Source of the DNA: Protoeuglena noctilucae
Taxonomy: Eukaryota
Length of the DNA: 64,000 bases
Direction: 5' to 3'
Assembly (NCBI GenBank): GCA_958009085.1
Contig: OY253677.1
Coordinates: forward strand, 434,001 to 498,000
A model generated the notes under the pieces. It saw nothing but the letters and a program-made list of their open reading frames with translations. It was not told the DNA's origin and did not search any database. The number at the start of each line of letters is the position of its first letter. The first letter of the stretch is position 1. Shown in pieces: positions 1-61,889 of this stretch. Position numbers and translations under genes: made by a program.

Positions 1-3000
1 GATGAGACGCAGGACGGGTTCCCGCCGGCCCGGGTGCCTCGCAGCGACGCCGCTGCCCAGGACGGCAAGGGTCAGAAGGGGAGGGGGGGAACCAAGGCGA
101 GTCCTGGATGCATGGGGCATCAGAGCAAGGGCCAGAGGGGGTATGCAAAGCAAGCCTACCTGTATTTTGCAAACCTAGGACACCCTTGTACCTCAGCGTT
201 CCCGTTGCTGTCCCATGGTGGTGGTGGCCAGTGACATACCACCCTCACGCTGTACCACACCGTCGCTCGCTTCCAGGCCCCCAGCGCAGCCCCAGCGGGT
301 GCCGGTCCAAGCCGCGCTGTTCACGCGGATCACGACGATGCTGGGCACGACTCTGAGGCGGACGTGGACATGGATGGCGGCACGGACGCTGGCCCAGAGA
401 CGGACGATGACGTGGACGACGTCGGCAGGACGCACGGCGGCAACGGTGGCATTGGGGCAGGCGGTGGCGCGGGGGAGGGCCGCGCGGGTGTGCTGCGGGG
501 TCGGCCGGCCAAGGGACCTGTGCTGGGTGCCAATGTCCAGGCCCGACAGCGGTGAGTCAGCCGCTGCATGGCATGCAGGGTCAATGGGGATGTTGAGCTA
601 TGATGGCTGGGCTGGAGGCAAGCTTATTGGCTGTCGATGCACAGTCACTCTCGTGCCCGTTCATGCGGTGGCAGGAGACACAGCTGCACATGCTGCACCC
701 CACCACCGATCGTCACCACCCTCGGTCCCCCGTGCTTGGCAGGAGGGGCAAGCAGTCCCGTCTGCAGGCCCTGGCACCCAAGGATCCACCCAAGGCCTCA
801 GATAAGGCCCCTTCTAAGGCATCCCAGCGAGCCCCGACTGCCGCTAAGGGCCACAAGGCAGGCGCTTCCCCCACGAAGGCTACACGCGCCCAGCCCGCTC
901 CCTCCAAGCCCGCCCCAGCCAAGGCCGCTGAGGTGTCGATGGGACACGAGGATGACCCCTACTACGCAGATGGAGACGACGCCTATGCACTGGAGACGAC
1001 GCAGGCAAGGGATGGGATGGGACGGGTAGCTGGGCATAGGTGCAGACATCACGCACGCAGGCAAGCCATACGTGACATGCTGCGTGTGACATTGACGTTG
1101 GGTGTCAAGACAGGAGCTAGTTGCATTGGTTTGTTGTAACTTTTACCCTGTCGCAGTAGCACTCTGCTCCCAATGGTCGGCCACCATTCCATGTCGGACA
1201 AGAGCACCGTGGCCCCACCAACCCCCTCCCCTGCTTCCCTTCCCCCCAGCCTTCCCAGGACGCCGTCCCCGCAACGGTTCCCGTCCGCTCCCAGCGTGCC
1301 GCTGCCAAAAAGGCTGCTGAGAAAATCAAAGAGGCCGCGTCACCCGCCTCACAGAAGGGTACCAGCCCCAAGACACCCGCAGCGATTGAGGGCGCAGGGC
1401 ACGCCGGGAAGGGCGGGGCAGCGGCGGTGGGGCGCGCGCCGGGCGGCAAGGGGCGGGGCGGTGGTGCGAAGGGGGTGCGGTCACCGAGGGGTGCCAAGGC
1501 GGGGGCGGGTGCGGGTGCTGTGGCGGTGACGCCGGTGGCTGAGGGCGGCAGGCACCGCTCTGCTTTCCACGGCGCTCTGTTCCCCGGCGATGGCGTGAGG
1601 GGCGGGGCGCCGGAGGTGCCCGGGCGCGGGCCGGAGGTGCCTGTGTTTGAGAGCGCCAGGAAGGCGGCGAAGCGACAGGAGGCGGCAGGTGAGGGGATGG
1701 ATGGGGTGGGGAATGGGTGAAGTGTGGGATGACTGTGACTGTGCTAAGGGGTCGTTGAGTGGGTGGGGGGTGTTGAGGTGTTGTGGCGCTGGTATGACTG
1801 ATGCACTGTGCTGCCGTCACCCCAACACCGAGATGCACACGGCTGTCACCTTGCTGCACTCTCATGTACGTCCTGTGCGAGTCACCGGTGGCCCTTCGTT
1901 GCCCTTGCAGCCAAGTCGGCCCGCCCAGAGGTTCCCCACCCCAAGGGCCGCACCGCAGCGGCGGACGGCCTGGGTGACTACGGCGGGGCTGCTGATCAGT
2001 TCCTGGCAGATGTGGCGGAGGAGAGGGCCCGCAGCACGTTTGGCAAGGCGCAGCACGTTGCCGGGAGGGGCGCGGCGGAGGAGGGGCGACCCAAGCGACT
2101 CGCGGCGCTGGGTGGGGAGGGCCTTGGGGCATCGGCGGCTGGGCTGGGTCGCCCCGCAGCATCGCCCCTGGAGGGCCGCGGGGTGACGGACAAGACGCCT
2201 GCGACGGTGAGGGTCATTAACCAATGGAACTGGGACCTGCGTGCTGGGCGCTTCGTATCACACCCCTGCCCTTCTCCTCGTCGCATCGCATGACACACTC
2301 ACACTCACACGCACACTCACCCTCGTCTCTCCACTCCCCTTCAGCTGGGCAAGCGCAAGACGCCTGCGACGGAGCAGCTGACGGGTCCAGTGGCGGAGGG
2401 CGAGCCTCGCAAGAAACGCGCCACTCACGCGCTGCTGAGGGACGAGGGCGGCGCTGGGGAGAGGAGGGCCGAGGGAGGGGGAGGGACCGTGGAGGTGAGG
2501 TGGGGGTGGGGTGGGCGAGGGGGGATGAGGGGGATTGTGTAGGTGAGAGGATGCGGGGTGAAGGAAGGCGAGGGTAGGGGAGGGGCAGTGTGGGGGTGAG
2601 ACGCCCATCACTTCACCTTCCCTGCTTAGCCACAGTGAAATAAGTCTCTCTATATGCCCATCCATCACCCCACCTCCCCTTTCCTTCCACAGTGGGAGGA
2701 TGCCCTGGGCCGCCTCTTTGACGACGCGGCGGGTGGGGTGGCAATGGCAGCGGACACCAATGCTGCCACGGGTGCCGGGGCTGGCATGGACACGCGACGA
2801 TCGACGCTGTCTCCTCAGATGGCCCCGTCCCTGGGCGGCGACGCGACCCCGGCGCTGCTGGGGGAGAGCCCGGGGGTCGTCACGGACATCGGTGAGGGAC
2901 GCGCTGAGGGCTGATGAGGACTGATGACGATGCAGGGGCTGGGTGGATGAATGCATGAATGTGTGACTGTATATGTATGTGCATGTGTACGTTTTGTCTT

Positions 3001-4844
3001 TCCGTTAGGGTCTAGCACAGCCATGAGTGGTGCTGCGACCTTCGTCGCGATTGGTCCTCATCTCTCATGGCTCATCACTGCTGGTCGCGAATGGACTCTC
3101 TTCCTTTGCTCTCTGCAGATATCAGCCCCACATCTGATGCTCTGGGGGGACTCGACTTGGACCTCTCCTTCAACCCCATGCGCACCACTGCCACGCGCAC
3201 CGCACCCATGCCACATGCACGCGCGGCCCCCAAGGCAGCCAAGACCGCCGGCAAGCGCCAGGTGAGGGCTGACGGCTGTTGAGAAGTCACTGCGAGTGGC
3301 ACAGCATGTGACACGGCATGCGTGGTGACTGAGTGGCATCGTGGCTGAGTGACAAGCCATGCACAGTGGCTGTGCCCCACGGCATGCATGGTAGCTGCCA
3401 GCGCAATGTGAGGTTGCCAACTCGATCTCAATGTCGATTTCATGTGCACTACACTGTGCCTGGCTGATCACTGCAGGCAGGTGGTGGTCGCGGTGGCGTC
3501 AGCCGTGGGCGTGCGGTGTCCCCCAGCCGCGGTGGTGAAGAGGAGGAGCCGGGCCTGCAGGAGATTCTGGCAGCGGTGGGGTCATTGGGGGACGACGTGG
3601 ACGACGAGGGGGCCAGGAGCCTGCAGGAGGTGGGGGGTTGGACTGAAGGGTGGGGGGTGGCGATGCGATGTGTGGGGGAAGGTGTGGGTGGGTGGACGGC
3701 TTGCAGGTTCGTGACTAAGACCAAATTCCCCATATTCAAACGCGGTGCAATGATTAACTGTGTCGTGTCGTGCGTCGCAGGCCATGGCGGCGCTGGTGCG
3801 GGCGTGGCAGCAGAAGGCACGCAAGGCGCGGCTGCACATCATGGACGAAGTGGAGGTGAGGGTGATGATGGGGAGAGTGATGATGAGAGAGATGGGTGCC
3901 GGGCCAAGTCACTATTACTGCCCTAGCGATCATCAGTGCCTAGTACTACTACCACTGACATGACGGTCATCACTAGCTCGACTCGATTGATGACTATCAC
4001 CGCCCCTCTCTCGCAGTCTGCCCTGGCGGAGGGTCAGCGTCGGCTGTGCGCAGAGATCGCCGCTGCTCAGAAGAAGGACGCCGGTAGCATCGCCGGCAAA
4101 GCAGGGGCACTGCAGAAGGCACTCGCAGCACGCGCCAAGTGAGAGCACGAGCGTAGATGGCGTGTTGGCTTGCCCCGGATGCACAACATATGTGAGATAC
4201 AGTAAGCGAGGCCGGTGTCACATTGTGCGTTGGCCCATGAGATCAGACACCGTGCACCGCCCGCACATGACCCAACACGTTCCCCTCCCCACCACACTCC
4301 ACTCACACATGCGCATTCCACCCACCCATGACCCCTCTCCTCGTGTCCCTCCCAGGGCCATGGATGACGAGCAGTCGGCATTCCAGTCACGGATGCAGTA
4401 GCTGTGGGACGACTACGTCACTGCGTACAAGGATGGCGTGCAGGGCATCAAGAGGGAGGCGCAGGCACTGCAGACCAGGAGGGCGGCGGCGAACAAGGTG
4501 AGGGCTGCGGGTGTGGGGGTGTGGGTGATACCGATGAGATGAGGGTGGCTGCCAAGTAAGGGAAAGGCATGGGGTCTGAAGTTGTGGGTGTAGGAATTGT
4601 GGGTGTTGAGAGAGATGAGAGCTGCTTGCCGCATTCTATTGTAACGCGTTGCTCTACACACAGCCTCAGTTATCAATCTTACACTGAATATTGCCACTCC
4701 TCATCATCGCAGCGCAAGGTGGACGATTTCCGTCGATCTGTGGAGGAGATGGTGGGTGCAGCGGAGAGGCGACTGGCGGAGGCGTCGAGGAGGCGGCCGG
4801 CTAAGGAAGCACTGGTGGGGCTGATGAGGATGATGCAGGAGTGA
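1..4844 (+). CDS. Low-complexity protein with C-terminal coiled coil, candidate ASY3/PAIR3-like meiotic axis protein; 5' end outside window or unresolved; one in-frame TAG at 4399-4401
   Basis: Phase-compatible exon chain: ...-1004 (GC donor), 1250-1688, 1911-2206, 2345-2494, 2693-2891, 3119-3261, 3477-3629, 3781-3855, 4017-4138, 4356-4497, 4713-4844 (TGA). The C-terminus DEGARSLQEAMAALVRAWQQKARK...RKVDDFRRSVEEMVGAAERRLAEASRRRPAKEALVGLMRMMQE resembles the plant ASY3 C-terminal coiled coil by eye. Gene structure is well supported; the identity is inference. Confidence 0.55.
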
Positions 4845-5140
4845 TGGTGGGGATGGGGTGGCAGTAGGGGTGGTGAGGATGATGCAGGAGTGATGGTGGG
4901 GATGGGGTGGCAGTAGGGGTGGTGAGGATGATGCAGGAGTAATGGTGGAGATGCTGGTAGTGGGGCTGATGAGGATGGTGCAGGAGTGATGGTGGGGTGG
5001 TGGTAGTGGGGCTGATGAGATGGTGCAGGAGTGATGGTGGGGTGGTGGTAGTGGGGCTGATGAGGATGGTGCAGGAGTGATGGTGGGGTGGTGGTAGTGG
5101 GGCTGATGAGGATGGTGCAGGAGTAATGGTGGGGTGGTGA
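4816..5140 (+). repeat. Minisatellite (about 48-51 bp unit, about 7 copies) containing the last codons and stop of the upstream gene
   Basis: Recurrent gctgatgaggatg(a/g)tgcaggagt(g/a)atggtgggg unit; the first copy is the coding end LMRMMQE*. Confidence 0.9.
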
Positions 5141-8517: not shown

Positions 8518-9547
8518 TTACATGCCCTTGGTCCCCTCCACGATCTCTTCCATCGAGATGGCCTGCTCCTTCCCCGCAAAGTCGTTGTCCTCCGTCAGGA
8601 AGAGCATGCAGTGGCACTCCTTCCTCTCGCGCATGGGCACGCACGGGCAGTTCCAGAAACCCTGCTTCGCCTCCGCCTCCTTGTCGTCGTAGTGCCGACA
8701 CGGGCACAGGGGCGCGCCCAGCGTGTCCTGCAAGGGCGAGCCGGAGCCGTCTCCTGCCACCAGCCGTCGCCCGGCGGCCTCCCCGGGGCGCGCGTGCGTG
8801 CGCATGCCCGCCTCGTTGGCCCGGGACACAACCAAGTCCGCCCCGCCCACCTTGTGCTCTGCGAGGCCGCAGATGACCACCGCCGTCACCGACTTGTCCA
8901 CGCAAAAGTACGTCCCGCTGCCCTTGGCGTACTGCTCCGAGAACTTCCTCATCACCTGCAACGGAGGGGCGGGGCAGCGGGCCTCGATGGGGCGCGCAGG
9001 GCCGGCGAAACGCTCGGACGCACAGCCTCGCGGATGCGAGCCCGTGGGCGCGCCGGGGGCGCCCATCGGCCGGCGCACGGAGATGCTGACGGCGGCAACG
9101 ATGCTAGATCACGATGCGCGAGAAAGCCACGTGAGAGAGCGGGCGGATCGAGCACCGCGGGCAAAGGTAGGGTCGACTCGATGGGCGCCCCGAAACCAAG
9201 CGTATGGAACACGCGGGCGTGTCGCAGGAGGCGCGCGAGGACGCATACAACGAATCGCGTCGAAGGTGAGGAAGGCACGCGGCGAGACGAATGGGAGGCG
9301 TCGATTTGCGAAAACCGTTTCCCGAAACCGCTCTCCCGGCGCCGATGGGCCGAGAACCAGGCTGGCCAATGCATCGCCGGCTTGTAAAGCGCCAACCGTC
9401 CGCATCGGGAGCTCCGGAGGGACGGGACGGCCTCCTCACTTCAATGTTCTTGCTGCTGGGCTCCGCCTGTGCCACCGTGCCCTCCCTCCGCGCGGCCCCG
9501 ACCCTCGCGCCCATCGCAAGGCGGGGCCGGTACGCCAGGGACGCCAT
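8518..9547 (-). CDS. FTRC: Ferredoxin-thioredoxin reductase catalytic (beta) chain, chloroplast precursor, 140 aa
   Basis: Exons 9547-9440 (transit peptide, ...AEPSSKNIE), 8955-8851 (VMRKFSEQYA...GLAEHK), 8727-8518. CPC, CPC and CHC signature in LGAPLCPCRHY...WNCPCVPMRERKECHCMLF; TAA stop. Confidence 0.97.
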
Positions 9548-19400: not shown

Positions 19401-22400
19401 CCTGCGCCCCGCCACCGCGCTGCCCCGGGCGCTGCCCAGTGGGGATGGGCCCGAGGACCCCGCTGGAAGCCCTGTGCCCCCAACTGCGTCGCTCTGACTG
19501 AGAGCATCCCGGGACAAGGACAGCTCCGTCTGTGCAGCGTCCCTCGGCGTTGCGGGAAGGCCGAACTCCGGGTCCGGCGTGAAGGGCGCGGGGTAGAGCC
19601 CCGCACCCCCCCGCAGCCGCAGCACCGTGTGCGACGCCTCCACTGTCCCCAGCTCCCCTGCACCGTCCCACGGCCCGCCGCCCCCGCGCAGCCGCAGCAC
19701 CGAATGCGGCGCCTCTGCTGTGCCCAGCCCCTGCGGCTCCCTCTCAGCATCCGCTGCAGCAGCGGGGGTCCCTGGGGCCTGGCGCGCCCCCGCAGATGGG
19801 CTGGCCCTGGGCGCGGCTGCTGGGCTCCTGGCCTGGAACCGCGAAGTGCGGGCGGGGGACCCAGGCGCGCCTGTTTGCGCTCTCCCCGCCTGCACAGCCC
19901 TGCGCTTGCCGCCACCTGTGATGCCCTCCCTGCGCCCCCCGCCCCCCCTCTGCTCCCAACAGCGCCGCGGCGGTCATCCCTTCCGCCAGGGACNNNNNNN
20001 NNNNNNNNNNNNNNNNNNNNNNNNNNNNNNNNNNNNNNNNNNNNNNNNNNNNNNNNNNNNNNNNNNNNNNNNNNNNNNNNNNNNNNNNNNNNNNNNNNNN
20101 NNNNNNNNNNNNNNNNNNNNNNNNNNNNNNNNNNNNNNNNNNNNNNNNNNNNNNNNNNNNNNNNNNNNNNNNNNNNNNNNNNNNNNNNNNNNNGGCCTCC
20201 TCGCACCGATGCTCAGCCGCCCTCGCCTCGCGCCGCGCCGCCGCTGCGTCCCCCGCCGCCGCCGCCGCCACCGCTGCCGCCGCCTCCAGCTCCGCCTCCG
20301 CAGCAACCCGCGCCCGCGACTGTGCCGCCCCCTCCTCCGCCAGCACCCCGATCTGCGACTCCGCCTCTCCCAGACGCCGCTGCAGGTCGGCAGCAAGCGC
20401 ACGCGAGCCCTCCAATTCCACCGCCAGTTGAGAAGGGTTTGAGGGACCCTGGGGGACGGCATCAGCCGCCTGTGGTGCTGGCGTAGCATGGTGGTGGGAT
20501 TGGGCGCCGTCATCCAGCAACCGCGGCCCTTCCGACTGCACCCCGACGCTCAACCCTGCTCGCATCTCAGCTGCCTGCGTCCCTGCATTGGACATGGTTG
20601 CAGAGGTGTCTGTGGCAGTGGCCACCGTTAGGGCGAGAGGCGCGGCCTGTGTGGAGGTATTCTGGCCAGGCCTCGCAGCCGTGTCCAGGCTGACGTACGC
20701 GGCTGCCGTCTCAGGGAGGGCCGCCTGGGTTTGGGCGTGCGCGGTGGGGGCGATGGCTGGGTCGGTGCCCCGTTCGGCCGTTGCCGCTGTCGCCCACACA
20801 CCAGCGTCCGCGATCGATGCAGATGCTTGGCCCGCCGCGTCATGCGATGCCGCTTGGGTCGTCTGCTGCCCTGCATCGCGAGCCCCGTCCTGTGTAACAG
20901 TTTCCTCCCCCTGGTCACGCACAGCAGAGCTGCTGGTCTGCTGCTCAGCGTCATGGGCGTGGCGTGCAACCGTCTGCTCGCCCCAGTCATGCACACGTGC
21001 TCCCTCCGTCTGCTGCCCCGCCTCATGATGGACACGCACAAGCGTCTGCTCGCCCTCATCGCGTGTGGCAGTGCGAGCACCGTCCGTCTGCTGCCCAGCA
21101 TCGCGACCCACTCTCACAGGCGTCTGCTCGCCCTCGTCACGCACGCCAGCCCCGACCGTCTGCTGCCACGCGTCGCGAGCCCCGCTCTGTGTGACTGTCT
21201 GCTCTCCCTGTTCGCGCACAGCAGTACCGCGAGTCTGCTGCGCGGCGTCCAGGCTCGCTTGCGCTGTCATCTGCGTCCCGGCGTTGCGGACGGGGGACCG
21301 CGGAGCAACAAACGTCGACACGGGCAGACCAGGGCGGGCAGGGCTCTGCGGCAGCTGCCCATTCGATGCACGCCGCTCCATTGCTGGCCCACCGGCCTCC
21401 TGCACCGTCCCCTGGCCGGCAAGTGTGACCGGTGCAACCGGTGTGTCGGCCTGGGATGCTCGGGACAGCGACAGGGGTACCGCGAGAGAGCCCTGCGAGT
21501 GCACTTCTGCCATAGCCTGCGCCCCTCGCGACACAGTCACGGGGCGTGGGCTTTGAATATCGCTGGCGTCTGTGGGTCGCCCAGACTCGGTCACCAATGG
21601 GAGCCCTGATTGTGCGGTCATTTTGACGGCGCGTCGCAGGTGACCCAGCTCTGCCTCCAATGCCCCCCGCTCCCCACGCAGGCGCCCCAGCTCCGCAGCC
21701 ATGTCCACCAGCTGCCCCTCCAGATCCGCCGCCCTCTGCAGCGCCTCCCCCAGCGCTGCCACCTGCTGCGCCGTCCCCGCTTCCTGTGACGCACGGCGAT
21801 CATTCACTGCACGTGTCGCCGCCTCGCGTGCCGCGGCCAGCTCTTCGCCCGCCGACGCCAGAGCAACCCGCAAAGCCTCTGCGCGGCCCTCTGCCTCAGC
21901 TACACGTGACACCTCCACCAGTGGCAGTGCCTGGTCCCTGGACGGCGTAATGGGGGCCACAGCCGCAGCTGCTGCAGCTGCCGCTTCGGCCTCGGCCACC
22001 CGGGCCTCTGCGGCGGCGAGTAAGCCCGCCAACGCCCGCGCCAGGCGCGCGGCCTCTTCCCTTCCAGTTGCCGCCTCCGCCACCGCCTCTGCCACCCGCG
22101 CTTGCGCCGCCACCACCTCCCGTCGCAACGCCACGTCCCGCTGCTGCGCTGCCTCCTCCACGTCCACGCAACGCGCACGCCACGCCTCCATGCTCCTGCC
22201 GAGCTCCTCCACCTCCCGCCGCAGGCCCTCCGCTGCTTGGACTGCGACGTCGCACTCTCGCTGCGACGCCTCAACTGCCTCCTGCGCCGCCCGCAGTTCC
22301 TCCCGCAAAGCCGCAGCCGCGCCCGCTTCCACCGCCGCGCGGTCTCCCGCCTGCAACGCCGCCTCCAGCGTTGCCCGGAGCACTCGCACTTCCTCCGCCA

Positions 22401-25400
22401 TCGCCCGCTGCCCTGCACCGGCCCGCTCGCGCTCAGCTGCCGCCGCCGCCGCCACTGCCCGCAGCCTCTGCACCTCCCCCGCGACTGCCTCCGCGGGCGC
22501 CGCCCCTGCCGCGTCGACCTGAACCTGCAACGACGCCACCCGCGCACGCAGAGCGCTTGCTTCAGCCGCCACCCCCCGCACGCCCGCCTCCGCCGCCGCC
22601 AGCTCCGCCTCGAGCACCCGCACGCGGTCCCACAGCGCGTGCACCTCGGCCCTCGCGTCCCCCGCCTGCAGCAGCGCCTGCCGAGCCGCGTCCAGGTTGG
22701 CAGACAGGGCCCGAACCTGCCCCTCCAGTGCGCTACGCTCCGCTTGCACCAGCGCCCGACCGGGCGACTCCGGCTCCCAGTTCCTGCCGTCCCCGACGCC
22801 CGCGAGCCGGGGCGTGATGGGGGGCGTCACGCCAGGCAGTGGCAGCGGCAGCGCTAGGGCAGGCACGACGGCGTCACCCCGGCCGGTAGAAGACAGTGCA
22901 CCCTCATGCCCCGCCCCGCCAGAGCCCTCGTCACGGATCACTGAGCTTCCCTCACGAATCGCCGATTGCGCCGAGCGATCTCGCATGACGCTCTCTGCCG
23001 CCTCCACGTCCCGCGCACGCACGCCGAGCTCCCGGCCGGCAGCCTCCACCTTCCCCGCCCGCTTAGACAGCTCGACTTCCCACGCCCGCAACTGCTCTTC
23101 CTTAACTGAGACCTCGCTTGCCCGTGCCTCCACCTCACGCCCCATTGCAGCCAGCTCTCCCTCGCGCTCCGCCGCCCGCCTCTCCCCCTCCACCAGACCG
23201 CTCGCACGCTCCAGCAGCTCGTCCTCCGCCGCAAGCAGCTCTTGTAGTTTCGCGTCCAGTGCCCGCCGCTGCTGCTCCAGCTCCTCTCGCACGGCCAGCT
23301 CACGTGCCTCCCCCGCCCCCAGTTGGGCCTGGAACGATGCCATTGCGGCCTCACGGGCGGCCAGGCTGTCTTGCGACGCACGCAGCTGCGCCTCCAGCTC
23401 TGTTGCTGCAGCCTCCCGGGCGGCCAGGCTGTCTCGCGACGCACGCAGCTGTGCCTCCAGCTCTGCCGCCGCAGCCTCCCGGGCAGCCAGTGCCGCCTCC
23501 GCCTGCCCAGTGACCGCCTCGCGCGCCGCCAGCGCAGACTCCGCCATGCCCACCGCTGCCTCCCTATCCACGAGACCAGCCTGGGCCTCCCAAAGCCTGC
23601 CCTCTTGCTCCCCCAGCGCTGCCTCCCTGCTGGTAAGCGTGGTGGCCACAGCGTCGCCCGTGCGGTCCCCTGTTGAAATTCCCTCCGCTCCCACTGGCCC
23701 GCTCATCTCGGCAGAAGTCGTTGCCGCCGTCACCGCAGGCAGCTCGGCCCTCGCCGCCTCCATTGCCCCTCTCTGTTGCTCCACATCAGCCCTCTCCCTC
23801 TCCACCCCTGCCCTCATCGCCTCCACCGCCGCCCTCTGCTCATCCAACTCCGCCCTCTCCCCCTCCACCTGCATTGCACGCTCTTCCACTGCTGCCCTGC
23901 CCCTCTCCACCTCAGCCATCGCCCTCTCCACCTCCACCGCACGCCCCTCCACTGCCGCCCTCTCCCTCTCTGCCTCAGCCCTCGCCTCCTCCACTGCTGC
24001 CCCCTCCCTCTCCACCTCTGCTCTTGCCGCCTCCACCGCCGCCCTCAGCTCATCCACCTCGGCCCTCTCCCTCTCCACATGCACCGCACGCCCCTCCACC
24101 TCCGCCCTCATCGCCCGCACCCGCTCCTCCTCCTCCAGCACCCGTGCCGCGTGGCCCCGCACCTCCCCTCGCATCACACCCACCCTCGCCTCGGCCTCTG
24201 CCATCTCGGCACGCATCCCCGCCACCCTCGCCTCCGCCTCCGCCGCCCGTGCTGCCGCCCGCTCCAGCGCCTCCTCCGCAGCGTGGTGGTCCGCAAGTAA
24301 CGCGTCGAATCGCGCCTTCCACCCCGCCACCACCCCCATCGCCTCCGTCACTCGCGCACGCAGCGTCTCATTGTCACGACGCAGTGCCGACGCGTCCTCT
24401 GCCCTGCCAACGCTTACGCCCACCCACTCGACGTCCCCGGAGCTCCACAGCGTCGGCAGCGCCCGCACAGGCGACGCCCCAGGGCCCATACCACCCTCCT
24501 GCGCTCTGTCGTGCCTGGGCGCGTGGGTCGACATGCCACCCACAGGTGACGCCGTGACCTCCTCAGGCGCGCCACCATGCCGCTCTGGTGTTGTGGCCCC
24601 GAACGCAGCTGCGTCCGTGCCCAGACCAGCCGTGGCGCCCCTGGTGGCGTCAAACAGAGGGTTCTCTGCCAGACTCGGGGACCGCGGCCGCCTCCACGCG
24701 ATGGGACTGGCAGCCGAGGTGGGGCTGTGAGGCGGCGACGCGTGGCCCGCCGTCTCTGCAGCCAGTGACTCCGCCGTAGGTGCCGAGACAATGTGAACAG
24801 CAGCGTCGGCCGTCAACGTGGTGCCGGGCCAGAGTTGGCGAGCCGTGGCAACCACCGCAACTGCGGATTCCAGCTCCCGCACCCGCCCCGCCAGCGCAGC
24901 GTTGTCGGCCAAGAGCTCCGCAATGCGAAGGGCGTCGTGCGCGGGTGGTGCCCGAGCCGGCGACCATGGTGCGGCGGGCGCATTCACTGGCACGCCTGAG
25001 TCATGCGCCCCTGACGCCTCTGTCAGGGTGCCAGTCGCTTGCGTCGACACGGCGTCAGTCGCCATCCCCGTCTCGGCAGTGATTGGCCGTGCGCCGACCG
25101 CCGCAGAGGCGACGGGGGTGTCAGGGTGGGGAGCAGGGAGGTGCGCCATAGGAGCGACCGCTGAGGCGACACCCATTGGCACTTCCGCCTGCGTCGCTGC
25201 GTCGGCCGTCTCGAGTGGCCTTGCGACGAGCCTCAAGTGCCCGTCTCCGTCGTTCCCCGGGCCGCTGGATGCGGATGAGGATGGCGACGGTGGCTGTGAG
25301 GAGCGTGGGGCGCTGTGGGGTGAAGACGATGACGACGATGGGTTTCCTGATGGACCGCCCGTTTGCGTGCTTGCATGAGCCGGCGCAAGTGTCTCGGCAG

Positions 25401-28400
25401 AGCGCGGGCCGGCAGATGAGTCAGCACCCGCCCCGCCAGTCTCGGGAGCGACGGTCGCCACGTGCTCTGTCCGGCTAGCAGCCACAGCGGCCTCTGCCGC
25501 ACGCAGTTGCGCCGTCGCAGCAGCGAGCTGGTCCTCGAGTCTCCGCGCCCTCGCAGACATCACGGACAGCCGCTCGTCGCGCGCCTCCATCGCACGCCTC
25601 AGCTCCTCCACCGCGGCCAACAGCACTCCATGCTCCGCCGCCGACGCTCCGGGCGTGGCCGCCGGCGTCGCGAGCGCGTGCTGCGGCAGCCACGACTGCA
25701 CCACGGCGTCTGCCAGGTCGCGTGACGAGGACCCCACCCCCGCGTCCACCGTCACTGGCGCCAGAACCGAAACGTCAGAATCCGACTCCTCCGAGTCAGA
25801 AACGGACTCAAGGACCGCAGAGTCGAGGACCGCGGAGTCGGTGAGCGCCGTGTCCCCTGCAGTTTGAGCCAAAGCCCCGACCCCTGCGCTCTGGGCCAAC
25901 AGCGCTGGTCTGCCAGCAGCGGCCGCCCCAGTCGCCACGCCCTCACGTGCGGACTCCCACCCGCGCGGCCGCAGCTCCTCCCCAGCACCGGGTCCGCCGA
26001 GCAGCGGCTGCGCTTCCCCGGCACTTAACGCCCGTGACACCATGCCTGCCTGCTCTGACCCCCCACGTGCGACGCCAGCTGCCGCCGCGGCACCCCCAGG
26101 CGCGGCCTCCGAGGGCGCCACGGACGGCGCCGGGGTGAAGAAGCGCGTGTCCTGGCGCGGCAGGCCCTGGCCGCCCTCCCACGCGGCACTGTCGGCCGTC
26201 TGAGACCCAGCCGCCGTCACTGATGCAACTGCGTGCGATGGCTGCGGCTGCGTGGATGTCCCCGCTTCGACCAGGGGCGACCCGGGCCCCGCCTGGGACA
26301 CCGCGTCGCGCGTCTCGGCGCCCCGCGGCGAGACTGGCGGGGTTCTATGAGGAGGGGTGGTCGACAGCGTGGCAGCGTGACCGGTGTCGTCACGCACGCC
26401 CTCTCCTCTCCCCTCCAACACCACCCTCGCGCGGATGAGTTCCTCGTCCCGCTGGCCCAGCTCCCCGTGCAGCTCCGCCACGAGGGCCTGGAGGCCATCG
26501 ATGCGGGCCTGGAGCGCCGCCTCCCGGTGACGAGCCTCCCTGGCCGCCCGTGCCAACGCCTCTAGCGCTCGCGCCTCCGCCTGCTCCCCGCACGGCTCGC
26601 CAGGGGCAGCACTGGGGTGGAGCTGCACCGGCACTCCCTCTGCCGTTGTCGTCGCTGCGCCAACAAGCGACATCGCTCCCTCAGCCTCGGAACCTTCCAG
26701 CTCCCGTCGCCGGGTCTCGCTTACCTCCCTTTCGTGCTCCAGGGCCGCCTGCAGCTCTGCCGCGCGCCGGAGGTGCGCCTCGGCCTCTCGCTGGGCGCTC
26801 TGCAGTTCGGTCTCCAACGCACGCAGTTGCGCAGACTTCTCGCGGACCGCCTCTTCATGTGATACCACAGTCACGTCGTCTCTCGGTCGCTCTGAGCCAG
26901 GCGTGCGGTCCTCCTGAGCCCAAGCATCCGCAGTGGTTGCGGCAGCCTGCGCAGCGGTCGATCGCACTGGCACAGACGCTGACGCTTCCCTCGCGTTGAT
27001 CGAAAGCACGACTGCCGTCTGCTCGGAGACCACCCTGTCTGTCTGTGTCCATTGGTCGGCCGGGTCGCCTCCGCTGGGCTGTGTTGCCCACACAGGGTCG
27101 CTTTGCCCACTCCCAATCGCCTGCGTGGCCACTGATGACGCTGCCGTCCCAAAGTCGGACCCTGCCGCTGCCTCGACCATCGCTGGGCTGTCCGTCTGGG
27201 CCACCGAGTGCGCCCTCGCAGCGGCGATGAGAGGCGCCTGACGCTCAACGGCATCTCGCAAGACATCGTCCGTCTGCATGGACGTCTCCTGCGCCTGCCC
27301 GCCAGCGCTCGCCGACGCTGCCCTTGGCTCGTCGCTGTGCACGACCAGGGTGATGGTGACGGGCGTGGGGGCACCCTGCACTGTCAGATCGGCTGTCTGC
27401 GCCATGGTCGCGACCGTGGAGCGCGCAAGGTCGCCACTCGAATGCTCATCCGTTTGCACTCCCTGCACGGCCCTGCCACGCTCATCGGAATCCCCAAGGG
27501 CCTCGCCGGAGCCAGTCTCAAGTGTGACAGGTGCGACGGTCTGTGTGCTTGCGTGATCTCCCAGGACCCGCGGCACCTCCCCACGGCTCACGGCAGCCTC
27601 GGGCAGAGTCTGGGACGCCCCGTCAGCGACCGCAGACGTCGCCTGCACCGCCGCTGGGACCGCAGAGACCTCGGGAGACTGCGCGACGGCATCAGCAAAT
27701 GTCAGGGTCGCCAGATGCTGAGATGATGTGCTACGCGTAGTTGGTGCTGCATCGTGCTGAGCCGACGCGTCAGCCGCGGTGGGTGCTGCCCCATGTTGAG
27801 ATGCGGCATCAGCCGTGGTAGTTGCCGCCGCACGCTGAGTCCCAGCATCAACCATTGCCGGTGCTGCACCATGCTGAGTCGCAGCGTTGGTCTGGTCTGT
27901 CCAAGCGCTTGCCTGGGTTGCCGCCTCCGCTGTGGCACTGCGGTCCGTGGCAGTGGCCGCGTCGGCAGTCAGAATCGCACGCGTCGCAACAGCAGCATCG
28001 CTGAGTGCTACAGCTTCCGTCATTGTAAACGCATCGGATCCGGGAGCAACTCCGTCAGAACCACGCGCATCGTGGGGCGCACTTGCATTGGTCGCCGATG
28101 CTGCCGGTGCGTTGCCTGCGCCAGCCGTGGCAGAGGCAACAGCGCGGACGGGGATCATGACCGGATCCATGGTCGCCCCGAACACCCCTGCAAATGGTGG
28201 CGCGTCCGTGCCCACATCTGTCGTGTGGACACGTTCCGTGTCCGTCGATGCGTCTGCCACCATGGCGCGTCGGACGCCTGCCCCAGTCTCAGGCAGTCCC
28301 TCAGGCCCCAGCGCGTCTGCCTGGGCGACCGCATTTGCCACCGCGTGCACGCCGAATGCCTGGGGCTCGGTGCCCGTCGAGGCATCCATGCCTGCGACAC

Positions 28401-31400
28401 CCGGGGTGGCGTCCGTGGTCATACCTGCGTCGACGAGTCGCACATCAGGCCGAGCCTCCATGGCGGTCGAGGCGTCGATGCCAGCCACACGTGGGGCGGG
28501 ATCTGTGTTGGTGTTTGCATCGTTGCTTGTGACCCCAGGCTCAGTGCTCGTGGCTGCGTCGTTGGCTGCCACCCCAGGTTCAGCGTCCGTGGCTGACACA
28601 GCATCGAGGCTAACCACGCGCCGAACGGCGTTGGTGACTGTTGCCGCGTCCACAGCCGCCACGCCAGAGGACTGGTCGTCCGTAGATGTCGCTGCGTCGA
28701 TGGCAGTAACTCGCGGTGCGGCATCCGTTGCAGTGGCGGCATCGAGGCTGGTTGCGCCAGGTGCGGCGTCGGTGATGGTAGACACGTCTGTGCCCCGGAA
28801 GCGAGGCTGGACATCTGTTGTTGTCGTCGTGGAAGTACCGACGGTTGCAATACCCGCCTCGGCATCCGTGACCGACCCCACATCGACGAGTTGGATACCG
28901 GCGTGAGCGTCCGTGGCAGTGTCTGCGTCGACACCAGCCGCATGCGGGGCAGGATTTGTACCCGTGGATGCGTCATGGCGTGAGACACGAGACGGAGTAC
29001 CCACAGCAGGAGTAGTAGCAGTACCCGCACCCTCTGCTGCAATGTCAGGCTCAGTGGTGGTGAGCGCATCGGCCCTCTCGACATGAGGCGGGGCATCCGT
29101 GGCTGTCGCCGCGTCGAGGCTGGCGATGCGAGGGATGGCGTCCGTCATAGTAGACGCAGCCGCGCTCTCAGGCAGGGCCCTGGGCTCCACACTCCTTGTC
29201 TGAGCCGCAATGACGGCAGTTGCGGCCACAGCCTGGGCACCGGCGCTGTGCATCGCAAGTTCCTCCCCCACCGCCGCTTGCACACCAGCACTGTGCATGG
29301 CGGGTGCCTCTCCCACTGCCGCATCCACCCTCGCCCCATCTCCCCCATCGCGCACCACTACTGGCATGTCGCTGTGTTGCGTCCCAAAGTCTGTCGTCTG
29401 CACCGCCTCCGTCACTGTCCCACGCTCCACCCCTCGCAGCTCCCCGCCCGCCTGGGTCGCCGCCTCGCTCGCCCCCCCCCCCGCCTGAACGCCCTGCTCC
29501 ACGTCCCCAGCAACTGCACCACCAGACCCCGCCTCGCCACCCACCACGCGCTGCCCTTGGTCGCCCGAGACCTGGGGCCCCTCCCCAGTCCCCCAGACCC
29601 ACGCATCACCCTCCTCTGCGCTGGCGTACCCCTCCTCGTCGCCGCCGCTCGACTCTGGCGAGTCCCATGCGCTGCGAAACTCCAATTCCGACGCAGCGAC
29701 AGAAACCGCACGCGAGCGCGCACCGTGACCACCCCTCCCGGCCCCGCGTCGCTCCGATGCCGAGCGTGTCGAGCGCGGTTGAGGGCCGGGCCAGGCGATT
29801 GCCTCGGATGGGGCAACGGATGACGGGGAGTGGAAGGCGGTGCCAGTCTCACTCCGCGTCCGCGACAGCGCCCCCAGGGACCGGTGACGTGGGGTGGCGG
29901 TCTCGGACCTGGGGCCGGCATGCGCCGCGTCCCTCGCGCTCAGGCTGGCGCCCGCGAGCAGGGACTCGGGCGCGACCACTGACAGTGGCGGGCGACGGCG
30001 GGGCACTGTCGTGTCGGCCGCTGTCATAGACACCTGGACAGCAGCGTCGGCGCGAGTTTGGCCGGAGGGAGCCTCAAACGTGCCGGGACGAGCCGCATGC
30101 TCAGCTGGCTCTCCCGGCTGCAACTGGGCAGGTGGCGTCTGCGCGGACGCGTCGGCTGTTGTGACGGCCGCGACAGCATCGCTGCCTGCATCCACGCGCT
30201 CCACGGTTGCGGCATGCGACGCGCTCGCACGCGGCTCCTCCGCCGGCTGAACAGCGGCCGCCCCAACCCCTCCCTCCGTCTGCACGTGGCCGTCCGCCAC
30301 ATCCACCGCCAACCGCGGACCTCGCGCCTCGTCGCTGCGTCGGCCCTCCCCCAGCGCCGCCGCCATCTTCAACGCGGCCAGCTCTCTGCGCAGCCGCTCC
30401 ACCTCCGCCTCGCGCTGCGCCACCGCCGCCGCCGCCGTCGCCTTGCCCCACGACCCCTCCGCCCCGCCCTCGCCGCGCCCCGCCAGCTCCCCGTCCCGCA
30501 GAGCCAAGTCCCGCTGGAGCCCCTCTGCCACGCCCTGCAGCCACTCCGCCCGACGCCGCTCCGTGTCCGCTGCGTGCTGGGCTTCCTGCCACTGCATGAC
30601 CACCTCCGCCAGCTCCCCACGCAACTCCGTCACCGCTCCCTCCGCAGCCCGCGCGCGCTCCTCCCAGTCCACCGCCCCTGCCGCCGCGTCCACATGCGGA
30701 CCCCCTGCGCCACTTGCGGGCTCTGGAAGGGACTGCTCACCTTCGTCCCCTGACGATGTCGACACTGACCCCACCTCATCTACGCGTGACGATGGTGACG
30801 GGGGCACCGAATGGTCCCCCCCGCCCGCACCCGCGCCAGTCGTGAACGCATCGCCACGCGTCGAGTCTCCTGCCCGCCTCGAGTCTCCTGCCAGCCGCTG
30901 GTGGAAGTCGCGGTCGCTGGGGGACGTGGCGAGGGTGGCGGACGGCAGCGTCGACGGCGGCTGCACTACACGCGGCGGCGGCGAGAGACCCGGCGTCGAC
31001 GCAGCGTCCTGCTCCACTGTGCTCCGTGCTGCGCTCGGCCCGCGGATGACAAGGGGCAATGCAGGTCCACGCACCGTAGTCGTAATGGCGGGCGCACTCG
31101 GCACACCGCTGTCCATCGCAGCGACAGCGTCCCAGTCCGCGACCGCGTGGGCCTGCGCCTGGTGCCGTAGCGCCTCCACTTGCCGCCGCAGCTCGGCAAT
31201 CTCAGCCTGCGCTGCGTCCCAAGCAGCTGGGCCACCCCCCATGTCCGCTGCACCGTCTGTCATCCCATGCGCTGCACCGTCAATCCCAGAGTCAGCCGCG
31301 TTTCCAGCGCTGTCCGATGTCAGTGCTATCATCGCGCGTGGGACGGCCAGCGAGTCCCCAGGAACCGGGGTTGACACCGACCCCGCCACCCGCCTGGCCT

Positions 31401-34400
31401 CCGCCTCTGCCGCCGCCAGCGCAGCCCAGCTGGTGCCGAACGCCCCCACGTCTGTCTGCACATTTGCGTCTCGCACCGCCCCCTCCGCCTGCATCGCGAT
31501 TAACGATGCAGCCGGGACATTCCGTGACCCCTCTGCCACGCTGGCTGCTGCCCTCGGCCCAGCTGTAGACGCATCCACGCCCTCTAGAGCTCCTGAAGCC
31601 TCAACAGCCCCCGGGCCAGTCCCAGTCTCGAACGCAGAGGACGCGTCGAGGAATGCTGCAGCGAACTCTGCGTCCATCGCCTCGTGGGCCAACCGACGCG
31701 ACTGCTCCAACGCCGCACGCAGCGCCACCACCTCCGCCTGCGCCGCCCGCGCCCGCATCTCCGCCTCCTCGGCGCGCCGCAGCAGCGCCCGCGGCCCCGC
31801 CGGCAACCCCGCCCTGCCGCCTGGTCCACTGCCACCCTCTCCGCCTTCGCTGGATGACTCGTCTGATGCCGCACCAGAGGGCCCTTCGCTGGTCTCCAAG
31901 GATGAGTATGAGTCTGACGATCCCGCAGACGCCATCTCCACGATCGCCGCGCCTGAGGAAGGGGCTGGGACGTGGCCTGCAGCTGCGCTTGCACCCGCAT
32001 CCCCCATACCAGGGTCGGCATCACCGTCCCCGCGCGCCGAGTCCTCGGCCCTCACAGCAGCCACCAGGGCTTCTTGACGCATAGGTGCCTCAGTCTGCGC
32101 GCCCTGCCGTGCCACTTCTGCCCCCGTTGCCTCCTGCGGGGTCCCTTGGGCCATCGTGGGCTCCCCCGTCACCCGCGGGACCCTCACAGGAGACCCAGGG
32201 ACCGCAGATGCTTTTTCTTGCATGGAATTGATGAAGTCCATCTGCGCCCGCGCCCTCTGCAGCTCAGCCGTCCGCTGCTCGAGCAGCTGCCAGGCGTGGC
32301 TGGCTTCCTCCGTGAGCCTCGCGACCTCAAGCGAAGCCACCATCGCCTCTTCCCTCGCAGCCTCCAGCGCCGCACGCAGGGCGGCTGTGTCCTCGAAGTC
32401 CCCTGCATTGCCAAGGGTGCTAACCACGACAGGAGCGGCGGTGGACGGGCTGAGTGGGTTCGTCTCTTGTGGGTGGAGAGGCTCTGCCTGTGCTGCAGCC
32501 TCAGCGGTGCTGACCCCTGCCTGCGTGGTTGCTGCTCCCATTGCCAGAGGCTCCGACTGTACTGCAGCCTCCCCAGTGCTAACCCCCGCCTGCGCCCCAA
32601 AGTCAGCACGCTCCGTCGACCTGGCCAGACGCTGGGCTGTAACAAGACCAGCAGAGTCGTCCTCAGCAGCATCCGCCCCTCTATCAGATGTCTTTGCTGC
32701 TGCCTGAACCGCCCGAGCCTCCCCCGCTTGCGGCATTGTGCCAGTCCCGGCCTCCGCCACGCCCGCCACCGCTTGCACTCCGCTGTGGGCGCGCTCGCTC
32801 ACAACGGCGTCAGTGCCATGAGCACGCTGGCTGGGATCGCTGGCGTAGGCATCAGTGCCCGCGCTCGTGATTGCCGGCACTGCCTGCACCCCCCCATCCA
32901 CGCCCTGAATCATCTCCATGACAGTGATGGCCTCGGCTGTCCCCATCACCGCCTGTGCACCGCCATCGGCACGCTCGCTGCCGCTTGCATCAGTGCCGAC
33001 CTCGGCTGTCGTCGCTGCCGCCTGCATCCCGCACTCCATGCCGTCGCCTACAGCCCTGAGGGCCCCCGGCGTCGGTGAGTGAGGCGACGTCTGCGCAACG
33101 CCGTCCACAGTCAGTTCCTGTGCCTGCAGAGCCACGTCCCGCACCGCCGCTGGGTCCGTCTCCGTTGCCACGGCCACGTCGACAGGGCGCGGCACAGCGC
33201 TGACGGCGTCCGGCGCGCCTGCACCGACCGCCAGGGGTGCAAGTGGCCGAGACTCCCCACTCGCACGGCCCTCTGCCACAGAGCTCTGCACCGCAGTGGC
33301 TGCCGTCTCTGCCACCGTCTGCGTGGCTTGCGTGGCTGTGACTGGAACCGCCTCCCCACAAGCGACCGTATTGGATGGGGCAATGATGGGCCGCGGTGTC
33401 CCTGTCTGGGTCAGCTCTGCACCCTCGACGTCAGCAAAGGTATCTGTTTGCGTCGACCCTTGCTGGGACACAAGCACAGCACCGTCCGTCTGCGTGGATC
33501 GCAGCTCGGCGGCCACCCCAGCACCGTCCGTCTGCGTCCCATGCATCGCCATCTCGAACACCGCCTCGACCCCAGCGGACGCCACCGGAGCCCTCGCCAC
33601 CAGTGCCGCATCCACCCTCGCCGCCAGCGCTTCGCTCTGGTCCAGCAGAGCGCCGCTCCCGGTCGCCAGGTCCGCAAGGACGTCCGCCAGGTTTCGAACC
33701 TGGGACCTTAGGGCTTCGTTATCCGCAGCTAGACCGGCCGCGTGCAACGCCGGCGCGTCCGTCGGCACGCCCGGTGGGGCGACCGTGAGGGCGAGTGTGA
33801 CGGGGCGACCGTCACGGGGCGACCTCGCCACCGCATCTGTAAATGTGCCCTGTTCCATTGTGCTGGCAGTCACAGTATCTGTTTCGGTCCCCTGCTCCAG
33901 TGTTCTGCTGGCGACTGCATCTGTAGCTGTACCCTGCTCGAGTGTGCTGGCAACCGCATCTGTAGATGTACCGTGATCCATTGTGGCAGCAAGAGCATCA
34001 GTCACCGTGCCCTGCTCCACCGCGGATGACGGAGGCACGAGGCTGTTGTCCTGCCACGCCCTCGCAACCTCCGTCAGCCCCGCACCCTCCGTCTGCGTCC
34101 CCTCCGCAGCCGCAGCATCCAGCCCCGGGCCGTCCTGCGTGCCTGCCGTCACCAATCCACGGCCGCTCGCTGCCATCTCCCTTCCCACCAACGAAGCCGC
34201 ATCGACCCCACTCACGCCCTCCGTCTGAGTCTCTATCGCCAACCCCACTGGCGGTGCCCTGCTTACCCCACCCGCATCATCCGTCTGAGTCTCTGCCCCC
34301 AGCCCCGCCGCACGCGGCCCAGCCGGGCTTGGCAAAGCGACCGCATCCGTCCCAGCGTCCGCGACATCCACCTCGTCGTCCCCGCCCACGCGAACCGACC

Positions 34401-37400
34401 GCAGGGCAGCGAAGCTCGGCCCAGCCGCCACGTCCACCCCGCGCCCCTCAGCGCCCTCTCCCACCCCCACAGACGCCGTCGACACAAAGCTGGGCCCAGC
34501 TGCCACATCCACCCCATGCCTCCCAGCGCTCTCTCCCACCCCCACAGACGCCGTCGACAAGAAGCTAGGACCGGCTGCCACGTCCACCCCATGCCTCTCA
34601 ATGCCCTCTCCCACCCTTACAGAGGTCCTTGACACAAAGCTAGGCCCGGCTGCCACGTCCACCCCACGCCCCTCAGCGCTCTCCCCCACCCCCACAGACG
34701 TTGTCGACAAAAAGCTAGGGCCGGCTGCCACGGACCGCCGCTCCACCTCCGCCTCCACGCCTGCCGAGCGCCGCTCCAAGTTGGGGCCGCCTGGGACACT
34801 GCTAATCTCCGTCTGCGCGCCCGCATCCTCAGCTGTGGTTGGTGCACCAGTATCCGTCTGCGCACCGACATTCTCGACCTCGGCCTGTGCACCAGCACCA
34901 GCGTCCGTCTGTGCGCCAGCCTCAGTCTGAGCACCGACATCCCCAGCCTCGGCCTGTGCACCCACATCCCCGCGTTCCCTTTGCTCTCCAGCCCCCCCAG
35001 CCTCGGTCTGTGCGCCGGCAGACGCGGCCGCTGGTGCCACTGGCGTCGACGGAGTTGCAGCGGCGCGACGGTCCAGCATCCGGACAGTGTGGTTGCGTGC
35101 AGCAACGAGAGCCTGCGGGGTGGAATAGGAAACACTTCATTTACCGCGTACCTAGCAGTGCTCGGCCCTTAGCCCATATCTAGCAACACAAACATCTCAC
35201 ACGCACTGCGGCAGCACGTCTATGCTTAGCCGAACATGCCTTGCAATTCAACCCACGCCACTCACCCCCCGGGTCACGCGCAGTGCTCCTTGCAGCTCAG
35301 TGACAACCCCGCGCAGCGTGGCGAGCTCCGACTCGAGCTGACCCACCCGCGCCTGCGCCTCCGAATCACCCACAGCCGAGGGCCCGGCCGACTCTGTCAG
35401 GGTCTGCGTGTCACGCGTTGCCACGGCATCAGCCGTGACCTCAGGTGCCCCCCCAGCACCTGCAGGCGCTGCCTTAGCAGCTGTCGAAGCCACCGGGGGC
35501 CCTGCAGCTTTGTCCGGCTGCGCCCCAGCACCCCTCTCGCGTGCCTTGCCGCTCTCCGCCGCCCGCAGCTTGGCGCGCAGGTCGTGGATCGCGTGGTCCC
35601 GCCACGACACCTCGGCCTGCAGAGCGCGCACCCGGCGGCTCGCATCTTCCGCTTCCTGCCTGGAGGCCTCCAACAGGCCCCTCAGCCCCGCCAGGCGCTC
35701 GCCCTCCGCCCCCGCTCCCGGGTGCTGCGGGGCTGGGCTGGGCCCCGGTGAGCGTGCCTGCGTCGCCATCTGCGACGTCCCCAGAGATGAGCGGACCGGA
35801 GAGGGTGAGACCACCGGGCTGGCCGCGGTGGCCTGGCCGGCTTTGCCTGCTGCCATCGGCGCCGGCACGATCTCCGGCTCTGGGGGCGGAGGTACCGCCC
35901 TGCTATGGGCGAGCGGGAGGTTGACGCCGGTGGCAGTGGGCGTCGCGCCATGCGTCGTTCCTAAGGCATGTTCCGATGGACCCACGAGATCCATCAGGGC
36001 AGAGAGGTCCTGGGCCTCGCTGGCCTGCAGCAGGTGCCGCAGTGCCTCCACCTGCGCCCGCAGCTCCCGCAGCTCCGCCTCGCGCCCCGCAGCAGCTGCA
36101 CCTCCGGCCTCCGACGCAGCAGGGGCGTCCGCGGGCGCTGGGGTCGGCGGGGCGCTGGGCGACGCAGCGGCGACAGCGGCAGTGACTCGTGCAGCCAGCG
36201 TGGGTTCTGTCGTGGCAGTGAATGCGTCGCATCCGCGGTCTGCCACGGTCGGCGCTGCCTGCACGCCCGACTCGGTCAGCTGCGTCGATGCGGCAGTTTG
36301 AGACGGAGACTCGAGTACCGCAATGGCTGGGCGTGGGTCGCCCACTGCTGTCGCATCCGGGGCTGACGTCTGCGTCGCCAGGTGGATGCCCTCGCTTGAG
36401 CCAGCAGAGCCATCCGCCTGCGACGCCGCACTCGTGGCATCTGGCCGGGCTTGCGTGGCTGCGGTGGCGCTCGAGCGATGGCTTCCTGCCTCCACCGATG
36501 CGTCTGCCATCGTCGCGCCCTGCTGCGTGGCTGCGTCCGCAACCTCGCCTCGCTGCGACTCGGTCTGAGCGACGACACTGGAGTGGGACTGGGCGAGTGA
36601 CTGAGTGCCCACATCGGCGCCAGTGGGCGCCATTGCTGCCTGCGTCGCCTCGTCTGTGCCCTGAACGGGGCCTGCCTGTGTGCCAGCAGTGAAACCCGGA
36701 TACACCACCCCCGCCTGTCTCGCCCCGTCTGCGACCCGCGGAGGGCCTGCCTGGGTGCAAGCAGCAACGTCCGCATGCACCACCACCGCTTGTGTCGCCT
36801 CGTCTGTGTGCTGTACATGGCTCACTTGTGTGCCAGTATCGGCGCCCGCCCGCACCGTTCCCTCCCGTCGTTGCGCCGCCACCTCCTCTGCCACCCTCGC
36901 CTCCATCGCATCCCGCTCCCGCCGCCACGACTCAGCCAAGCCCTCCGCGTCTGCCACCCGCGCCTCCAGCATCGCCCTCTCCTGCCTTGCCGTCTCTAGC
37001 GCCGCCTCCGCCTCCCGCACGCGTCCCATCAGCGCCGTGCCCGGCTCGCCTCCTGCCACCTGCGCCAGCTCTGCCGCCAGCGCCCCCACCATCGCCCGCT
37101 CCTGTGCCAGGGCCTCTTTCAGAGCGTCGATGTCCAAGCGACCCAAAGTCGACGCCCTCTCTGCCGACGCCAACTCCTCCCGCAGCTGAGCAGCCTCCGC
37201 CTCTGCCGTCGTCAGTCGCTGGCGCTCCATGGAAAGTGCCTCTTGCATGACTCGCAGCTCAGCGCGGACGTCGGCCAAGGCCGCGCGCAGAGCATCGACT
37301 GCCTCTGCATCAACCGGAGCGCTCGTTTGCGCCTGCGGTGGCTGGCTGGGCTGCCCGGTCGACTCTGCCCCGCTGGCAACGTCGCGGCGATCTGCCACGT

Positions 37401-61689: not shown

Positions 61690-61889
61690 NNNNNNNNNNN
61701 NNNNNNNNNNNNNNNNNNNNNNNNNNNNNNNNNNNNNNNNNNNNNNNNNNNNNNNNNNNNNNNNNNNNNNNNNNNNNNNNNNNNNNNNNNNNNNNNNNNN
61801 NNNNNNNNNNNNNNNNNNNNNNNNNNNNNNNNNNNNNNNNNNNNNNNNNNNNNNNNNNNNNNNNNNNNNNNNNNNNNNNNNNNNNNNNN
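61690..61889. other. Assembly gap (200 N)
   Basis: Run of exactly 200 N. Confidence 1.

Follow-up and report, generated by a model that had tools for sequence, protein, structure and literature searches.

An in-frame TAG codon in the penultimate exon of a transcribed Protoeuglena noctilucae gene, opposite a glutamine in its only detected relative

Results

A twelve-exon gene with a single internal stop codon

The DNA analysed is a stretch of 64,000 nucleotides from Protoeuglena noctilucae (contig OY253677.1, positions 434,001 to 498,000 of the forward strand), hereafter the window, and all coordinates refer to positions within it. Its first 4.8 kb, with a GC content of 66%, hold the 3' part of a gene on the + strand, whose introns are spliceosomal and whose 5' end lies beyond the window. 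By reading the three frames and joining them at GT/GC..AG sites, we obtained a model of 12 exons with GT/GC-AG borders between positions 277 and 4844. The joined length is divisible by three, and the single internal stop is a TAG at 4399-4401, with 719 open codons before it and 75 after it in the spliced frame. The 12 introns of the gene measure between 138 and 245 nt.

Specifically, positions 1-96 (+) correspond to the 3' part of an upstream exon. An RNA contig from the metatranscriptome run X9 (record 25) joins 1-94 to 275-480 with four ambiguous letters at the joint, which fits a cut at 96/277; shifting the cut by two bases rightward gives the intron at 97-276 GC..AG ends. The following coding exon, 277-551, opens in frame 1 and is backed by frame reading, by the spliced model and by the RNA contig. 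Exon 743-1004, which carries a GC donor, was placed by frame continuity in the model, no RNA joint being seen there. Exons 1250-1688, 1911-2206 and 2345-2494 derive from the model; the first is rich in Ala, Gly, Lys and Pro and disordered-looking in composition, and the third bears basic K/R patches resembling an NLS. GC-AG ends occur in two of the 12 introns, namely 97-276, seen as an RNA contig joint, and 1005-1249, seen in the model only.

From this point on, most borders were also found in RNA, the X9 junctions upstream of the stop-bearing region being 96/277 (GC-AG), 2891/3119, 3261/3477 and 3855/4017. Thus, exon 2693-2891 of the model ends at the joint 2891/3119, and exon 3119-3261 is delimited by the joints 2891/3119 and 3261/3477. 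Exon 3477-3629, supported by the model, the RNA and its composition, marks the start of a Pro/Gly-poor helical region, and its junction with the next exon (3629/3781) is represented in X9 by a 12-letter loose end before 3779, which matches the end of exon 3477-3629. Exons 3781-3855 and 4017-4138 are fixed by the joints 3855/4017 and, for the latter, 4138/4356.

The in-frame stop lies in the penultimate exon (exon 11, 4356-4497), which is defined by the model and by RNA and is predicted by AlphaFold2 to form a single continuous helix. Its translation reads (K)AMDDEQSAFQSRMQ, followed by the stop and by LWDDYVTAY..., and the donor GTGAGG is found after 4497. The letter next to the TAG is a C, and 32 codons (4402-4497) separate the stop from the end of the exon. 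The last exon (exon 12, 4713-4844), established by the RNA joint 4497/4713 and by the model, adds 43 codons and then a TGA at 4842-4844. The exon structure proposed in the preliminary description, in which a frame interrupted by TAG stays open, uses a donor and is completed by a further exon, is therefore confirmed by the model together with a spliced RNA contig.

The 3' end of the gene overlaps a minisatellite, a 46-bp tandem repeat on the + strand at 4815-5139 with about seven copies and 92% matches. The first repeat unit contains the last nine sense codons of the gene and its TGA; the later units thus place further copies of the sequence that codes for the C-terminus downstream of the gene, in its 3' flank. 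Contigs derived from the repeat are present in DNA and RNA runs alike.

Neighbouring genes

Pfam matches elsewhere in the window identify a ferredoxin-thioredoxin reductase catalytic chain (FeThRed_B, 8521-9108, minus strand), an S1-domain protein (48081-48674, minus strand), ribosomal protein S6 (Ribosomal_S6, 50833-51504, + strand) and a mitochondrial pyruvate carrier (MPC, 54869-55561, minus strand). These neighbours indicate that the host is a photosynthetic eukaryote, and the ferredoxin-thioredoxin reductase gene lies 4 kb from the stop-bearing gene. The FeThRed_B match falls in two stretches of one open frame, probably separated by an in-frame, stop-free intron, and a search of the ESM Atlas with this exon returned clusters of cyanobacterial type only.

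In addition, two giant stop-free frames are found on the minus strand, 19747-35136 (5130 codons) and 35251-38820 (1190 codons). They are about 114 nt apart, are both rich in Ala, Glu and Arg and coiled-coil-like, have no Pfam match at 1e-5, and probably belong to one giant gene. The longer frame spans a run of 200 N at 19994-20193; runs of exactly 200 N are also found at 43337-43536 and 61690-61889, and all three may be assembly gaps.

The TAG is present in DNA and in spliced RNA

Four public runs were compared with positions 1-4850 of the window at the level of contigs, at which rare variants are lost; the window itself may originate from one of the DNA runs. In the culture run labelled with the name of the organism (X5, record 9), a 10.6-kb contig with a depth of 207 spans 1-4850 with 0 differences and keeps the TAG. 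Another sample, a marine metagenome (X8, record 24), yielded a contig that spans 4333-4850, again with 0 differences and with the TAG kept. The metatranscriptome contig of 442 nt (X9, record 28) shows 0 differences over 4015-4138, 4356-4495 and 4711-4801; its splice junctions fall exactly at 4138/4356 and 4497/4713, and it contains exon 11 whole and carries the TAG as well. Across the stretch, the four runs gave no other letter at the contig level, at which minor variants would not show, and this includes the contig with a depth of 207.

A different picture was obtained from run X12, whose metatranscriptome contigs (286-562, 1123-1286, 1420-1757, 1988-2249 and 3055-3254) are unspliced across exon-intron borders. 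They represent pre-mRNA or DNA carry-over and were hence left out as evidence of expression.

Inspection of 4399-4401 in DNA and RNA, suggested in the preliminary description as a way to reveal a CAG or a GAG, returned TAG in all three contigs that cover the site and neither of the other codons at the contig level. In conclusion, the TAG at 4399-4401 consists of genuine letters and is the same in the spliced mRNA.

The sequence after the stop still looks coding

An open frame of this length is in itself a weak indication, given that the window is GC-rich and that 75 codons or more are spanned by 26% of its 2053 stop-to-stop segments; at the stop frequency of introns, 75 open codons would occur by chance with P of about 0.04. 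Stronger evidence for coding downstream of the TAG comes from codon bias and from the relative described below.

A log-odds model that was trained to contrast the upstream exons with the introns gave the 75 downstream codons +39.0 bits in the frame in question, compared with -58.4 and -14.6 bits in the other two. Among 1955 intron windows of equal length, not one attained this value (mean -57, maximum -23.5 bits), and in-frame windows of the upstream exons averaged 54 bits with a minimum of 24. A comparable result was observed with a model trained on the two unrelated giant ORFs, which assigned 0.36 bits per codon downstream and 0.39 upstream of the stop. GC3 downstream of the TAG is 0.83, and the introns are 57% GC. 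By all these measures, the region 4402-4841 still looks coding.

Protein architecture and the part lying beyond the stop

Within the window the protein model comprises 809 residues, with the stop at residue 734. The Pro+Gly content is 16-38% in most blocks upstream and falls to 2-11% in the last ~160 residues, which are rich in helix formers. The protein is, by composition, mostly disordered, and it is probably nuclear. A crude heptad score exceeded the 95th percentile of shuffled sequences only where the window began at residues 730-740 or 758-769. For exon 11 with Gln placed at the stop, AlphaFold2 run on a two-sequence alignment predicted a helix at residues 2-45 with a mean pLDDT of 92.9, the block bearing the stop averaging 98.

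According to these predictions, termination at the TAG would remove both heptad-positive segments and break the predicted helix. Of the protein length encoded within the window, the truncated form would keep about 90%, and it may retain activity.

A single relative with Gln at the position of the stop

An exhaustive phmmer search with exon 11, the stop being read as Gln, against 1.84 billion protein representatives returned two matches, P0001 and P0002. P0002 (E value 3.6e-5, to whose score the Gln placed in the query makes a slight addition) is a 125-residue ORF from genomic contigs, the longest of 21.7 kb. Its residues 1-46 align without gaps to residues 2-47 of the query with 46% identity. 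P0002 begins at the Met of the exon, and the likeness stops exactly at the last Lys of exon 11, after which P0002 continues with 'VR...', as a GTG-type donor would read when translated.

The residue of P0002 opposite the TAG is Gln (Q14). When the 32 residues after the TAG were compared alone, 15 of 32 were identical (47%), again without gaps and with the TAG opposite Q14; 5 of the 13 residues before the TAG are identical, as counted from the alignment, so that conservation after the stop is not lower. Inspection of this codon in relatives, which the preliminary description had also proposed, thus gives Gln in the one relative found. Taken with the conservation of the exon, the Gln of P0002 indicates that the stop most likely derives from a Gln codon. 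P0002 could be a paralogue.

P0001, a Cluap1/IFT38 protein (PF10234), was set aside: its alignment ran through a helical stretch present in three duplicated copies, which inflated its score, and the match is probably due to chance. PF10234 had no match at E<=10 in Pfam scans with single exons of the window. Further searches for homologues returned no usable match. In a word-indexed search against longer proteins, 0 of 11 candidates held up for exon 11 and 0 of 14 for residues 1-46 of P0002; a profile built from exon 11 and P0002 recovered, among 68 candidates of near lengths, just P0002 itself; and a search of the ESM Atlas with exon 12 gave no usable match. Among 502 pattern matches to exon 11 in JGI metagenome contigs, the sole locus to pass (L001) is a 14-residue chance match on a contig of bacterial type. 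Run X10, which is labelled as a different organism, contains 12% of the sampled words of the stretch and may hold the orthologous gene of a close relative. None of these searches assigned the gene to a known family, and as it stands it belongs to a lineage-restricted one.

The similarity detected to meiotic axis proteins is one of general architecture

The gene had been described as an ASY3-like meiotic axis candidate. Axis core proteins are long and mostly disordered and end in a coiled coil of about 100-190 residues; the present protein, with its helical last ~160 residues, does have this arrangement, and this general architecture is the part of the label that stands. Other features that characterise the family are a HORMAD-binding closure motif near the N-terminus, assembly into tetramers and filaments either alone or together with a small partner (ASY4/SYCP3), and expression specific to meiosis. 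The same combination of a long disordered region and a C-terminal coiled coil is common to many unrelated proteins, among them many nuclear scaffold proteins.

As for sequence, the searches, which used single exons of 25-146 residues and hence have low power, lend the label no support. Pfam scans of 10 single exons detected none of the axis-protein families at E<=10. Exons 10, 11 and 12, each compared singly with the sequences of the PDB, matched no axis protein and gave nothing below an E value of 0.49, and the exhaustive phmmer search with exon 11 returned no axis protein, just P0002 and the Cluap1 protein. The occurrence of the spliced transcript in an ordinary ocean metatranscriptome also gives no hint of meiosis-specific expression.

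Discussion

A Gln codon probably turned into a stop

The data presented above depict a gene in which a Gln codon has probably mutated to TAG, the new codon being real, transcribed and correctly spliced, and expected to truncate the helical tail of the protein. In the scenario that we propose, the gene would encode a protein of at least 800 residues, the last ~160 of which, poor in Pro and Gly, would be helical with heptad character. A Gln codon in the middle of the helix would have become TAG in this species, and the TAG would pass unchanged into correctly spliced mRNA. Since a real TAG is present in the spliced mRNA, ribosomes should mostly terminate early, that is, 75 codons before the end of the frame. 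The resulting product would be devoid of both heptad-positive segments, and any self-association by the tail would be lost or strongly weakened.

The TAG in DNA and in RNA, the splicing, the coding signature beyond the stop and the Gln of the relative are observed. From these we infer that the change went from Gln to stop, that it is recent, that a truncated product results and that its function is affected accordingly. The preliminary description had considered a recent loss of the gene as one of its explanations. A putative, presumably recent loss is the option that fits best with the Gln of the relative and with a downstream sequence that is still coding-like. As a counterpoint, a functional product of readthrough would be equally compatible with the intact downstream frame, its strong codon bias and the normal splicing.

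Alternative explanations

The simplest alternative, an error of the assembly or of the consensus, was also put forward in the preliminary description. It can be given almost no credence, and at the contig level it is refuted, because three runs, each of a different sample and study and one of them of spliced RNA, gave contigs with identical letters, the TAG included. That the TAG is the natural end of the gene, with 4402-4844 forming a 3' UTR that contains an intron, might seem favoured by the frequency of open frames of 75 codons in this DNA (26% of stop-to-stop segments), but the relative has Gln at the site and is conserved beyond it at 15 of 32 residues, and the in-frame log-odds match those of upstream exons; we regard this reading as very unlikely. 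A variant nuclear code in which TAG specifies Gln would account for the Gln lying exactly opposite the TAG in P0002. However, the two giant ORFs contain 303 Gln codons among 6320 codons and zero TAG, and coding-like segments are bridged by TAG in 6 of 102 cases and by TGA in 21 of 352, without any excess. The two best TAG-bridged cases are low-complexity Arg/Gly frames, and hence artefacts of composition. TAA ends the ORF of the ferredoxin-thioredoxin reductase (FeThRed_B) six residues past its Pfam match. A search for tRNA genes within the window found none. In any case, only a few sense codons can become TAG through a single substitution, and a codon for Gln is one of them. On these grounds a variant code appears extremely unlikely. 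An improbable but less remote case is that of a heterozygous or polymorphic locus, in which the TAG allele would coexist with at least one other and the function would come from an allele with Gln intact. Contigs drop minor variants and could conceal such an allele; against it, no alternative letter emerged in the four runs, one at a depth of 207, and the same TAG was found in the culture-labelled run and in two ocean samples.

The remaining alternatives leave the TAG in the gene and circumvent it at the level of RNA or of translation. A stage-specific switch, the third option of the preliminary description, would be of this kind and may exist; the UAG is kept in the spliced RNA contig, the RNA behind it shows no unusual structure, and the one relative does not share the stop. 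Stage-specific editing, or the removal of a small alternative intron, might eliminate the stop from a minor fraction of the transcripts. The preliminary description had stated that no nearby splice choice skips the stop in frame. In the strict sense this does not hold, because in-frame GT/GC..AG pairs spanning the TAG do exist, for instance from a donor at 4398 to acceptors at 4455, 4479 and 4482; yet these candidate micro-introns, 24-117 nt long, fall short of the real introns (138-245 nt), have weak donors and do not appear in the RNA contig. Skipping of exon 11 would shift the frame, and the spliced RNA contig retains both the TAG and the entire exon. As regards editing, fungal A-to-I editing in the sexual stage is described as repairing UAG codons (PMC11156358, PMC5496914, PMC10776026), and had been invoked as a precedent. 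The analogy proves weak, given that the host is a photosynthetic eukaryote and not a fungus, and that conversion of UAG to UGG would yield Trp instead of the Gln of the relative. Altogether, an RNA-level correction is quite improbable. Functional readthrough, in which a near-cognate tRNA-Gln would decode the UAG at a useful rate, constitutively low or raised at some stage, and so deliver the full-length protein, is in our opinion unlikely. In its favour, the downstream frame is intact and coding-like, as expected of the extension in programmed readthrough, the mRNA is made and spliced, and the stop lies between a Gln codon and a C. A study in yeast reports the insertion of Gln, Tyr and Lys at UAG (PMC4150775), and Gln codons flanking a premature stop are reported to raise readthrough (PMC13192750). 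On the other side, the stop is not conserved, the single relative having Gln, as opposed to the stop conservation seen in programmed readthrough; of the QXQ motif just the upstream half is present; and the RNA after the stop, folded as 99 nt of contiguous sequence starting from the stop, showed no unusual structure (z -0.63, with 53 of 200 shuffles folding equally well). It is plausible that some full-length protein, with the Gln of the relative, would be produced at a low level. A doubtful extension of the same idea is that the UAG may act as a dosage valve, by which a small and perhaps stage-dependent full-length fraction with a self-associating tail would accompany a dominant tail-less form.

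Significance

The in-frame stop of the assembly is a property of the organism, found in DNA and in sea-derived spliced mRNA, and not a fault of the assembly, and P0002 points to Gln as the likely earlier residue. As it stands, the locus is an ordinary nonsense-interrupted gene in a lineage-restricted family. Should readthrough turn out to be substantial, it would become a case of natural UAG suppression that restores Gln, a 'self-healing' premature stop in a wild marine alga. Were the protein, on the other hand, part of the meiotic axis, the stop would be relevant to the question of whether sex persists in this alga, although we obtained no support here for a link to meiosis.

Comparison with known systems

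The resemblance to the axis core proteins ASY3/PAIR3, Red1 and SYCP2 lies in a length of some 800 residues or more, in disorder over most of it and in some 150 helical residues at the C-terminus; in the cited report, the coiled coil of Arabidopsis ASY3, a protein of 793 residues, spans 605-793 and binds ASY4 (PMC6349405). The present protein differs from them in having no sequence or profile similarity when single exons are used, and the N-terminus of the gene, where the HORMAD-binding closure motif would be expected, falls outside the window. With Cluap1/IFT38, the common element is a short LW..YV helical stretch in both P0001 and exon 11.

The targets of A-to-I editing in filamentous ascomycetes are, as described in the reports cited above, premature UAG codons in otherwise intact genes, which is also the situation found here; unlike those targets, the host is photosynthetic, the RNA contig, from an ocean sample, is unedited, and the expected residue would be Trp where the relative has Gln. 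The yeast cases of readthrough by tRNA-Gln (PMC4150775, PMC13192750) are comparable in that here, too, there is a UAG at which Gln would restore the residue of the relative, with a Gln codon just before it and a C just after; the present stop differs in having neither a complete QXQ motif nor, in the 99 nt folded, a stimulatory structure, and in not being conserved in the relative. Finally, the locus differs from unitary pseudogenes and premature-stop alleles that are still transcribed and spliced in that its loss of function is putative and the truncated protein, which would keep about 90% of the length within the window, may retain activity; it shares with them a single nonsense change in a gene that is otherwise intact and expressed, with a coding signature in the downstream codons and a sense codon at the same position in the relative.
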